Below are positions 28,306 to 43,887 of a DNA stretch of 64,000 bases, piece by piece. Position numbers and translations under genes: made by a program. Each line of letters starts with the position of its first letter. Position 1 is the stretch's first letter. The notes beneath the pieces were generated by a model. It was not told the DNA's origin and made no database searches. It saw nothing but the letters and a program-made list of their open reading frames with translations. Origin of the DNA: Nitrososphaerota archaeon. Lineage in GTDB: Archaea > Thermoproteota > Nitrososphaeria_A > Caldarchaeales > Calditenuaceae. The DNA is taken from assembly GCA_041641295.1 (NCBI GenBank), contig JBEPYO010000001.1, forward strand, positions 928,001 through 992,000, written 5' to 3'.

Positions 28306-28482
28306 ATGCCACGGGAGTTTGTCGTTGTAGAGTCAAAGGTTAGGGAGCTGCTGCCGGAGGGTATTAGACTGAGCAGTGACGCACTCCAGGGACTCGACGC
28401 CGTCGTCAGGCAGGCGATCCAAAAAGCCGTAGAACGCTGCAAGGCAAACAACAGGAAGACAATAATCAAGGAAGACTTCTAA
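28306..28482 (+). CDS. short histone-fold protein (58 aa), face-to-face/HTkC-like type
   Basis: Manual translation MPREFVVVESKVRELLPEGIRLSSDALQGLDAVVRQAIQKAVERCKANNRKTIIKEDF: RLS loop, RKT-x4-D motif, VVxSKV N-terminus. Confidence 0.88.
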   Translation: MPREFVVVESKVRELLPEGIRLSSDALQGLDAVVRQAIQKAVERCKANNRKTIIKEDF

Positions 28483-41803: not shown

Positions 41804-42565
41804 GTGGTTAAGCTGTTTGGCGGCGTGGCATTGGTTAGGCCGGAGGAGTCGAGCGACGTCGAGGAGACAGTCAGGCGGATACTGGAGAGGCATCCGAACG
41901 TTAAGGCGATACTGAGGTACTGGGGGGTGGAGGGTGAGTATAGGAGGCCGAGAATAGAGGTTCTCTGGGGCGCCACACCCGACTCAATAGTTTATCGAGA
42001 GTATGGCGTGGAGTTTGAGCTCGACCCCGCCAGCCTGATGTTTTGTCTTGGAAACAAGTTTGAGAGGATTAGAACCGCTGCCATGGTCAGGAGCTGGGAG
42101 GTGGTCGTAGACATGTTTGCAGGCGTGGGACAGTTCAGCATCCCGATAGCCTACCACGCCAGGCCCAAGAGGGTATATGCAATCGAGATTAACCCAGCCG
42201 CATACGGATTTCTCGTCAAGAACATTGAGAGAAACAAGGTCTCGGAGATAGTTGAGCCCCATCTCGGAGACTGCAGGGAGGTTGCCAGGCAGATAGGTCA
42301 GGTAGCGGACAGGGTCATCATGGGGTATCTCCACGACACAGTCAGCTTCCTCCCATATGCACTGGGTATGCTCTCACCCGCTGGAGGAATAATTCATCTC
42401 CACAGCCTAGCCGTGAGGGGGAGAGAGGATGACCTGGCAGCCAACGCCCTATCCACTGCCGAGAGGCTGGGATACAAGGCGAGGCTCCTAGGCCGGAGGG
42501 TCATTAAGAGCTACTCCCCATCAAAACTCCACATAGCCGTCGAACTCTTCGCCATCAAGCAGTAA
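41804..42565 (+). CDS. Trm5/Taw2 family SAM-dependent tRNA-modifying enzyme
   Basis: MF..GN..ER, VVDMFAGVG.F, EINP, ADRVIMGY; start re-set to GTG 41804. Confidence 0.85.
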   Translation: MVKLFGGVALVRPEESSDVEETVRRILERHPNVKAILRYWGVEGEYRRPRIEVLWGATPDSIVYREYGVEFELDPASLMFCLGNKFERIRTAAMVRSWEVVVDMFAGVGQFSIPIAYHARPKRVYAIEINPAAYGFLVKNIERNKVSEIVEPHLGDCREVARQIGQVADRVIMGYLHDTVSFLPYALGMLSPAGGIIHLHSLAVRGREDDLAANALSTAERLGYKARLLGRRVIKSYSPSKLHIAVELFAIKQ

Positions 42566-43448
42566 GCACAGCCCTGATGAGCGTGAATTCTTTAAGACTC
42601 TCAATAACTTTCGACAACGCCACAAACAATGTATAGACCCGGCAATCTTCCACCCCTCTGCCTGTCAAAACCTCCTCCACCTTCTCCCCCACCCTCTCTA
42701 ACGCCTCATAATCACCGCCGATGGCGTCTGTGAGCTCGGAGACAAGCGTAGCAAAGGTCTCGACCAAATGTGAGAAGCCTCCCCTGCCTACAGTCGCAAC
42801 ATCTTCAAAAGCCTCGCAGAGGTCTAGCATCCGGGCTGAGACCAAGCTAGCTAGTGGAAGGGCTCGAACTACCAAGTCTCTAGAGGGTTTTGTTATCAGC
42901 CCCGAGGCGTATCTGAAGAGGGCGAGGGCGTATAGGCGGCAGTCGGCCAGCTCATCTGGTAGAGAAGCGCTGTCCCCAGAGCCCACATTTTTCGCAGCCG
43001 ATTGGGCGGCTGAGACAAGAGTCGTCAAAAACACCCTGATGCCTTGTTCTAGACTTGCGAAGACCTCGTCAGAGAATGAGGCCAGAACCTCGTTCTCGCT
43101 GGGGGCGGTGGCGATGAGGCCGTGAACCTCCCCCCTCATCCTCCTAAGCCTACCAATAACCTGTTGAGTTGGACCGCGGGTCCTAAACCTCACCTGACCC
43201 ACACCGATCTTATACAAGGCCCTAGTCAACTCCTCAAGCCTCCCCACACCTATTACGTCCAACTCCACATCCACTAAAGGTCCGACAGCCCTCTCCCCCG
43301 GAACAACTATCAGGAGCCCCGGCTCCGTGAGTAAGAAAACACTAGACCCTTTACCGAGCCCCAGCTCCTCCACCCAGTCCTTCGGGAGTGTCAAAACATA
43401 CGAGCTTCCCCGGAGTTGCTGTAGCCTCCTCTCCTCAAGCCTTGGCAT
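42555..43448 (-). CDS. AbrB-domain / PhoU-like regulator (divergent)
   Basis: RRLQQLRGSSYVLTLPKDWV AbrB N-terminus, LY..G. Confidence 0.75.
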   Translation of the reverse strand: MPRLEERRLQQLRGSSYVLTLPKDWVEELGLGKGSSVFLLTEPGLLIVVPGERAVGPLVDVELDVIGVGRLEELTRALYKIGVGQVRFRTRGPTQQVIGRLRRMRGEVHGLIATAPSENEVLASFSDEVFASLEQGIRVFLTTLVSAAQSAAKNVGSGDSASLPDELADCRLYALALFRYASGLITKPSRDLVVRALPLASLVSARMLDLCEAFEDVATVGRGGFSHLVETFATLVSELTDAIGGDYEALERVGEKVEEVLTGRGVEDCRVYTLFVALSKVIESLKEFTLIRAVLTA

Positions 43449-43567
43449 GCAATAACTATTCTTGCACCAGTGTTATAACGCTTATCCCGCGACAAGCCCT
43501 AACCCACAGAGGCTAGGATACCAAGGTCTCAATACATCAAGCTATGAGAAAACTTTTCTACCCTTCT

Positions 43568-43580
43568 AAATAAAAAATTC
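43568..43580 (-). terminator. oligo-T terminator of acidic microprotein gene
   Basis: Minus strand GAATTTTTTATTT about 20 nt after the TAG. Confidence 0.55.
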
Positions 43581-43599
43581 AGGTTAACGGTGGCTTAGA

Positions 43600-43734
43600 C
43601 TATACTTCCTCCTCTTCCTCTAACTCCTCCTCTTCCCACTCTTCTTCCTCCCACTCTTCCTCCTCTTCCTCGAAGTCTTCCTCCCACTCCTCCTCTTCTT
43701 CCCACTCCTCTTCAGAGAACCTGATGTGGCTCAT
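43600..43734 (-). CDS. ultra-acidic Glu/Trp microprotein (44 aa)
   Basis: MSHIRFSEEEWEEEEEWEEDFEEEEEEWEEEEWEEEELEEEEEV; GGTGAT SD-like, TTTTATA at 43769-75, T-tract downstream; mixed GAA/GAG codons. Confidence 0.75.
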   Translation of the reverse strand: MSHIRFSEEEWEEEEEWEEDFEEEEEEWEEEEWEEEELEEEEEV

Positions 43735-43887
43735 AATCACCGTGCCTGAAGCTCACTAATCTCCTGAATATAAAAGTATTGTGAGCCAGTAGAACCGCGA
43801 AGGACGCCAGAATTAAAGCCTTATCCATTCTATCGGCCTAACGGCCAGCGCAACATACACCGTGCGCCATGCCCTTGGCCAAACCAT

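Follow-up and report, generated by a model that had tools for sequence, protein, structure and literature searches.

Introduction

The archaeal stalk protein aP1 ends in an acidic stretch followed by hydrophobic residues, and its last 18 residues form a helix that binds the NBD1 cavity of ABCE1 with a Kd of 3.9 uM and is required for ATPase activation; this tail is also described as recruiting translational GTPases (PMC6125642). Here we describe a gene of 44 codons encoding a glutamate-rich microprotein on the minus strand of a 64,000-nucleotide (nt) stretch of genome from a Nitrososphaerota archaeon of the family Calditenuaceae, order Caldarchaeales (C1:928001-992000; this whole stretch is called the window, and positions are counted from its first letter). 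Like the aP1 tail (P1/P2, PF00428), the microprotein is acidic, carries aromatic residues at i and i+4 (W17, F21) and is modelled as a helix, and the family to which it likely belongs is encoded in several lineages beside ABCE1, aEF2 or an Obg-like GTPase. Unlike aP1, it has no N-terminal dimerisation domain and no Pfam match, and it is not tethered to the ribosome but stands alone; neither a Ribosomal_60s domain nor a C-terminal L-x-x-L-F-G is present. The aP1 of this genome is encoded by a separate open reading frame (ORF) of 114 amino acids (aa), about 103 aa when counted from the ATG.

Other small acidic proteins invite comparison. The ABCE1-associated eukaryotic factor eIF3j/Hcr1 has an N-terminal acidic motif centred on a Trp, and DSS1/Sem1 is small, disordered and very acidic, with conserved Trp/Phe residues that anchor it in basic grooves of several partners. 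Unlike the microprotein, eIF3j measures about 250 aa and has further domains, and no sequence match was found between them (Pfam only). DSS1/Sem1 (PF05160) differs in being eukaryotic, 70-90 aa long and richer in Asp, with a C-terminal helix, and the PF05160 profile gave no match at E<=10 for 10 members of the microprotein family. LysW/ArgW is likewise a tiny archaeal protein whose acidic tail holds E-D-W-G-E, and E-D-W-G-E-E and E-D-F-G-E-E occur inside some members of the family; unlike LysW/ArgW (NF041070), the microprotein has no Cys or zinc ribbon and does not end in Glu, and no lysine or arginine biosynthesis genes were found near its gene. Finally, Lto1 serves the maturation of eukaryotic ABCE1/Rli1 (PMC10245660). 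The family shares with Lto1 and with the [LIM]-[DES]-[WF]-COOH signal a Trp or Phe at the C-terminus with an acidic residue before it; it differs from that signal at the first motif position, and the protein of the window ends in Val.

The microprotein gene and its expression signals

The gene and the signals around it are listed below; conservation refers to eight DNA sequences, namely those of this genome and of seven genomes of the same genus.

43600..43734, minus strand: microprotein ORF, 44 codons plus TAG stop (ATG 43734-43732, TAG 43602-43600)
43736..43741, minus strand: GGTGAT, one base from the ATG; kept in only 4/8 genus sequences
43767..43774, minus strand: TATA-like box TTTATATT, 32 nt 5' of the ATG; invariant in 8/8 genus sequences
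43811-43824: block GGCTTTAATTC, about 40 nt upstream of the TATA-like box; kept in 7/8 genus sequences, two of them with one or two substitutions
43568..43577, minus strand: T-tract TTTTTTATTT, 22 nt 3' of the stop

Translation of the minus strand confirms the composition given in an earlier note on this DNA: of 44 residues, 29 are Glu, 1 is Asp, 4 are Trp and 2 are Phe, for an acidic total of 30/44. A short hydrophobic and basic N-terminus (MSHIRFS) is followed by Glu runs split by W, W, (D)F, W, W and L, so that hydrophobic residues are spaced 6, 4, 7, 5, 5 and 6 apart in the acidic part; the core is W-E-E-D-F, in full W-E-E-D-F-E-E-E. The microprotein has a single match in the 1.56-Mb genome, and in a six-frame scan it is the sole acidity outlier: it provides the most acidic 25-residue segment (21/25 Asp or Glu), the next best reaching 14/25. 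Its Glu codons are 18 GAG and 11 GAA (38% GAA), compared with 79% GAG and 21% GAA in the long ORFs of the genome; this raised GAA share might be a means of avoiding perfect repeats or GGAGG strings inside the ORF. Tandem Repeats Finder detected weak periods of 9-33 nt in the tract.

The earlier note had also proposed a complete expression unit. The TATA block and the ATG (both 8/8), the stop and the T-tract are borne out, an uninterrupted T6 run following the stop in 6/8 genus sequences and the remaining two being T-rich; the T-tract is likely an archaeal terminator. The Shine-Dalgarno part is borne out in part only: GGTGAT is there, but at one base from the ATG it is too close to act as a classical site, and it is probably part of a very short leader. 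The block GGCTTTAATTC may serve as an upstream promoter element, or it may be a signal of the opposite strand.

Coding selection in same-genus genomes

Since a GA-rich tract contains no stops in any frame, an open frame is by itself no evidence of coding, and relatives were examined for this reason. The protein query gave one match in each of the 7/7 same-genus genomes and matches in 9/61 relatives overall. In the window, the genes for a CN-hydrolase, NadE (NAD synthetase), the microprotein and an AbrB/PhoU-like protein follow one another on the minus strand, with a TYW2/Trm5-type methyltransferase gene nearby on the plus strand. This order from CN-hydrolase to AbrB-like gene is held in 6/7 same-genus genomes; the seventh (L007) has the CN-hydrolase and NadE, and gave no match to the AbrB-like protein or the methyltransferase. 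Flanking proteins descend to 64-77% identity across the genus, and the frame, ATG, stop, TATA box and T-tract are still kept. Pairwise comparison of the five genus sequences of equal length counted 15, 26 and 114 differences at codon positions 1, 2 and 3, and the differing codons are synonymous in 91 cases and non-synonymous in 38. In the genus alignment, the TGG, GAC/GAT and TTC/TTT codons are fixed while GAA and GAG swap.

The ORF is very probably a genuine protein-coding gene under selection, as judged from these alignments. Synteny, third-position bias, the conserved start, stop, promoter and terminator, and length differences of 12 nt and 9 nt all argue for a selected gene rather than a microsatellite. 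The stand-alone gene of the earlier note, which had taken the mixed Glu codons that keep the frame as an argument against a simple microsatellite, is upheld here, and the frame-breaking indels that it had considered as counter-evidence were not seen in the genus sequences.

The wider microprotein family

Because searches of the HMMER type fail on a protein of this composition, relatives were sought with degenerate DNA patterns, the reversed pattern serving as control. Families and genera are numbered below with the prefixes f and g, f1 being the family of the window. A pattern search for similar small ORFs had been suggested in the earlier note. Within the order, a pattern for EEDFEEE matched 33/76 genomes, once in each save for one genome with two adjacent copies, and the reversed pattern matched once. 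By family, f1 (15/18) and f4 (17/18) are rich in matches, with none in f2 (0/4) or f3 (0/35). All 30/30 loci fetched from the order hold tiny acidic ORFs of the same build with TATA-like boxes of their own: a Met (or leaderless GTG) start leads into 6-9 residues that are hydrophobic or basic, after which Trp or Phe interrupts the runs of Glu, and the final residue is usually Phe. In the sister genus g2 and in family f4, Phe is the last residue of most members; one g2 member has Leu.

At the level of the phylum, a pattern of EEEEE, a codon of aromatic type (TDB, by which Leu and Cys are read as well) and a stop matched 150/401 sampled genomes, with 8 control matches counted. Families rich in it include f3 (23/25), f2 (3/3), f14 (21/23), f28 (11/12) and f13 (7/8), others gave few matches, as did f15 (2/25) and f25 (1/12), or none: f5 (0/56), f10 (0/17) and f21 (0/15). 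The pattern is conservative, as it misses the genus of the window, which ends in Val; moreover, when ABCE1 was taken as the starting point, members were found in 2/5 genomes of pattern-negative families, namely in f21 and f10. In three sets of fetched loci, 28/30, 18/20 and 35/40 were microproteins. The others comprised two large proteins, two tail-bearing proteins of 102-106 aa, four LysW-like zinc ribbons and one unrelated ORF of 137 aa. Members are 27-55 residues long and rich in Glu, Trp and Phe, and most end in Trp or Phe (E-E-W or E-E-F). A TATA-like box lies 20-55 nt upstream in 33 related loci, and most related loci have T-runs 3' of the stop. In the phylum of a Thermococcus metagenome-assembled genome (MAG), the same pattern matched 62/133 genomes; 30 loci fetched there comprised 26 C-termini of TBP, 3 microproteins and 1 LysW-like protein.

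Databases and literature contained little that resembles this family. Pfam gave 0 families at E<=10 for the microprotein of the window and nine relatives, a search in which HMMER composition filters may mask weak matches; for the window's microprotein, NCBIfam and the PDB (phmmer) likewise returned no match at E<=10. A homologous-protein search scored 433 candidates, none at E<=0.01, and exact look-up of 12 family sequences found none of them in a 15-billion-protein collection. The ESM Atlas does contain the exact microprotein sequence, with uninformative neighbours (best score 0.85). A scan of genome contigs yielded at least 120 stretches, mostly from unrelated bacteria with a few archaeal examples. 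No description of such a microprotein was found in the literature, subscription papers and supplements lying outside the search.

The family is undescribed, mostly single-copy and spread through Thermoproteota, and it is also present in some genomes of the Thermococcus phylum. We consider it likely that the gene of the window is a member of this wider Glu/aromatic family and an ortholog of the others: it shares with them a length within 27-55 residues, a Glu content above one half, a Trp or Phe every 4-7 residues, presence as a single copy, and a core of the form E-(E)-D-[FW]-E-E.

ABCE1 as recurring neighbour

The strongest recurring neighbour of the family is ABCE1, found within about 0.6 kb at 30/111 microprotein loci in 11 families. 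Three arrangements were observed. The ABCE1 gene (NF009945, 661 bits) lies 42-102 nt downstream on the same strand at 16 loci (f6, f13, f18, f26, f30, f43), 307-509 nt downstream with one small zinc-ribbon gene in between at 12 loci (f12 nine times, f37, f46, f61), or in divergent orientation with the same zinc-ribbon gene in between at 2 loci (f7). Two loci from Bathyarchaeia MAGs show the same adjacency, as do two further families (f21, f10) located from the ABCE1 side. In six genomes with a copy elsewhere, this one included, no acidic ORF was found within 1.5 kb of ABCE1; each genome would accordingly hold one copy, either beside ABCE1 or displaced from it. As the most frequent neighbour, ABCE1 points to translation rather than to chromatin. 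Further neighbours among translation proteins are aEF2 (f45), an Obg-like GTPase (f31), and AspRS with a tRNA-binding protein (f2/f3).

The gene of about 100 aa that separates the microprotein and ABCE1 genes at 14 loci (L247-L256, L271, L273, L235, L278) deserves mention in its own right. Its product begins with a zinc ribbon of the RPB9/TFS type (PF02150, E 1e-6), continues with a basic linker and ends in an acidic helical segment; against the TFS model it scores 33 bits, under the cut-off.

Structure and proposed mechanism

AlphaFold2, run with a 17-row alignment, predicts a single helix over residues 8-43 (mean pLDDT 89.8, pTM 0.59), and poly-Glu helices may form only once a partner neutralises their charge. 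A complex prediction combining the ABCE1 of this genome (44-row alignment) with the microprotein (17-row) gave no answer (score 0.00) and counts neither for nor against binding.

On the strength of gene context, we tentatively connect the function of the family with translation or ABCE1, at somewhat less than even confidence. The best explanation overall, and one that we hold as possible and short of probable by analogy with the stalk tail, is that of a polyanionic ligand of translation factors acting in trans, with ABCE1 as prime candidate. The gene stands directly upstream of ABCE1 in many lineages; in the lineage of the window it would have moved between nadE and the AbrB/PhoU-like gene. 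The peptide, disordered or prone to form a helix, would act in trans, its aromatic residues and negative charge docking on a basic and hydrophobic surface of a translation factor; ABCE1 would be the first candidate partner, in the manner of the aP1 tail on the NBD1 cavity, and docking would modulate ribosome recycling or factor recruitment. Docking of this stalk-tail-like kind is rather doubtful when taken as a separate claim. The same low confidence attaches to its most explicit form, a free stalk-tail-like peptide binding ABCE1 and perhaps aEF2 and other stalk-dependent factors, which might be an essential helper or a competitive brake of recycling, an eIF3j/Hcr1 counterpart missed by gene callers, of which the window would carry the displaced Calditenuaceae ortholog.

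Several observations weigh against these proposals. The case for homology within the family is built on composition, residue spacing, a short motif and the single copy, and not on alignment statistics; a 17-sequence profile recovers f4 in 18/18 genomes and f1 in only 1/18, and it misses the copy of this genome at E<=0.001. The protein of the window lacks the C-terminal Trp/Phe/Tyr of the family, its genus ending in Val or Ile instead, and its gene is not adjacent to ABCE1. The ABCE1 gene of this genome lies at C1:653716-655485, 316 kb from the microprotein gene, and adjacency was seen at 0 of the Caldarchaeales loci examined; the link to ABCE1 therefore reaches the gene of the window through homology only. 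Where the two genes are adjacent, T-tracts stand between the microprotein ORF and ABCE1, so that the two may not be transcribed together. The remaining neighbours are diverse (SufC, MoeA, AdoMet decarboxylase, Ogg glycosylase, AbrB/PhoU, Usp, RAM-domain protein). The tail of the genome's own aP1 (…EEEALAGLSALFG; ends ALAGLSALFG) has a hydrophobic motif different from that of the microprotein, and the predicted poly-Glu helix might be unstable at neutral pH unless a partner is bound.

Other genomic neighbours

The gene that follows the microprotein ORF in the window, with its promoter, is as follows.

42555..43448, minus strand: AbrB/MazE-domain protein with a PhoU-like remainder, 297 aa (Pfam PF04014, E 4.4e-9); downstream neighbour conserved in f1
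43473..43478, minus strand: TTATAA box of this gene, 24 nt 5' of its ATG (43448)

The block GATAAGCGTTATAAC, which corresponds to this promoter, is kept in 7/8 genus sequences, two of them with 1-2 substitutions, and the microprotein gene is a separate unit because its neighbour possesses this conserved TTATAA box of its own. The AbrB/PhoU-like gene lies 3' of the microprotein ORF in three genera of f1, where the upstream gene varies between NadE, SufC and a periplasmic binding protein. Its residues 7-209 align with an AbrB+PhoU protein (L274) that adjoins the microprotein gene in f28. As a functional partner it was considered and set aside: adjacency occurs in f1 and f28, but the f4 paralogs are far away, and we retain it as context only.

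In other families, the neighbours of the microprotein gene include the following.

f45: aEF2, convergent
f31: Obg-like GTPase
f2, f3: AspRS, methyltransferase and tRNA-binding protein
f19, f45: Ogg/HhH-GPD glycosylase
f14: AdoMet decarboxylase, directly downstream in 9 loci (8/11 f14 genomes examined)
f28: AbrB+PhoU

In f4, the microprotein ORF comes after MoeA and is in turn followed by a RAM-domain gene, convergent to it, and by a gene for Usp or a permease-Usp protein. A 94-aa Lrp/AsnC-type RAM-domain gene together with a Usp gene or permease-Usp fusion is convergent to the microprotein gene in three Caldarchaeales families (L010-L029 and L262-L265, from f4, f3 and g4 of f1). In the f1 genera g2 and g4 (L027-L031, L033), a gene for SufC (TIGR01978, 317-322 bits, above cut-off) lies directly upstream; no SufB or SufD was seen in the 3-kb loci that contain it.

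Acidic tails on other proteins

In archaea, the poly-Glu tail with an aromatic last residue is a portable module: it exists on its own and also attached to TBP, to LysW-like zinc ribbons and to other domains, and this suggests that a common reader protein awaits discovery. The acidic tail of TBP in 26/30 loci of the Thermococcus phylum (L291-L318, G471-G504) consists of four or more Glu and a Trp, replaced by Phe in one locus, and so ends as most of the microproteins do; some of these genomes additionally encode a free microprotein whose start is rich in Lys (L290, L303, L310). The LysW-like zinc-ribbon proteins, of 59-95 aa, have a long poly-Glu/Trp tail with Trp or Phe as its last residue (L239-L242 in f27, L289), and their genes adjoin those for a Na/H-exchanger and TldD/PmbA, not lysine biosynthesis genes. 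Genome G106 encodes paralogs of 102 and 106 aa (L221:1450-1755 (-), L222:1213-1530 (+)) in which a Cys-containing domain of about 70 aa without Pfam match precedes the same acidic tail as that of the free microprotein of this genome.

Alternative explanations

The explanation of a trans-acting ligand of translation factors has to be weighed against six others. The first, which we regard as rather unlikely, is that the peptide is a general polyanion without any single dedicated partner: it would mimic nucleic acids, or it would act electrostatically as a chaperone or buffer of basic ligands (ribosomal proteins, DNA/RNA-binding proteins, polyamines, Mg2+ or K+). The extreme charge and the diverse neighbours are in line with it, as are the appearance of the same kind of tail on TBP, zinc ribbons and the 70-aa domain, and the position of AdoMet decarboxylase, an enzyme of polyamine synthesis, directly downstream in f14. 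However, the single Asp and the aromatic positions are conserved in W-E-E-D-F, which argues for specific recognition rather than bulk charge, only one copy exists per genome, and ABCE1 recurs as neighbour in 11-13 families.

Decidedly less probable is an adaptor for Fe-S delivery, in which an acidic-aromatic C-terminus resembling [LIM]-[DES]-[WF]-COOH or the C-terminal Trp of Lto1 would bring ABCE1 to cluster assembly. ABCE1 has two 4Fe-4S domains (Pfam), the SufC gene is adjacent in g2 and g4, most members end in E-E-W or E-E-F, and the eukaryotic signal sets a precedent (PMC10245660). Yet proteins of the window's genus have E-E-V or E-E-I at their end, Glu occupies the first motif position (L/I/M in the signal) in the whole family, and adjacency to SufC is limited to those two genera.

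A detached module appears equally improbable: the microprotein would be the split-off acidic tail that is fused elsewhere to a LysW-like zinc ribbon or to TBP, and would work with a tail-less partner. In all 4/4 f27 genomes examined, the tail forms one protein with a LysW-like zinc ribbon (NF041070, 37 bits vs a cut-off of 75) and no separate microprotein was found by pattern, and a small zinc-ribbon gene stands between the microprotein gene and ABCE1 at 14 loci; against this, no zinc-ribbon gene is adjacent in the window. The TBP of this genome has no acidic tail, and the same holds for the TBPs of one pattern-negative family. The variant with a detached TBP tail was rejected on the C-termini of TBP from 10 Thermoproteota genomes, which show no complementarity with the presence of the microprotein.

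It is very unlikely that the ORF is a leader peptide acting in cis, an upstream ORF whose poly-Glu/Trp translation would sense ribosome or recycling status and control ABCE1 or the AbrB/PhoU-like gene. The ORF does lie upstream of ABCE1 on the same strand at 28 loci and upstream of the AbrB-like gene in f1. Nevertheless, the stop is followed by a T-tract, and a separate TATA box serves the downstream gene 24 nt before its ATG; in f4 the next gene is convergent and leaves nothing to control; ABCE1 is divergent in f7; and the peptide sequence is kept where the context differs.

A further alternative is a histone chaperone or chromatin factor; the earlier note had proposed a histone chaperone, beside a nucleic-acid mimic or a cation-binding peptide, and had placed a histone in the window. 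Eukaryotic histone chaperones typically have acidic stretches with aromatic anchors, and in f12 the microprotein gene lies 3-6 kb from a histone gene (9 genomes compared), although ABCE1 is much nearer there. The histone of the note is probably a 58-aa ORF at 28306-28482 (+), which resembles half a histone fold and matches PF00808 only below threshold (16.6 bits vs a cut-off of 21.4, E 0.014). The sole clear PF00808 match of the genome, at C1:371229-371411, is outside the window and 600 kb from the microprotein gene. PF00808 was detected in 306/401 sampled genomes of the phylum, but the microprotein is common in families where it is nearly or wholly absent.

f14: microprotein 21/23, histone (PF00808) 1/23
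f20: microprotein 5/5, histone (PF00808) 0/5
f24: microprotein 3/3, histone (PF00808) 0/3

To these can be added f21, in which one genome has the microprotein beside ABCE1 and histones were found in 0/15. The chaperone reading consequently retains very little probability, and the microprotein more likely serves protein synthesis than histones.

As the last alternative, the tract might be no gene at all, either a simple GA-rich repeat or a non-coding RNA with a frame open by chance; this is close to negligible. In its favour, purine-rich tracts lack stop codons in every frame, the tract shows its weak repeat periods, gene callers missed the ORF and the 12 exact look-ups were negative. Against it, 114 differences fall on the third codon position and 15 and 26 on the first and second, GAA and GAG interchange next to invariant TGG, GAY and TTY codons, both ATG and stop persist, and two families share the motif at the amino-acid level.

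Significance

Should the family act on ABCE1 or stalk-dependent factors, archaeal translation would have a widely conserved component that has gone unnoticed, likely because such short, low-complexity proteins escape gene callers and profile searches. ABCE1 being common to archaea and eukaryotes, an archaeal accessory peptide of this kind would bear on the control of ribosome recycling and re-initiation.

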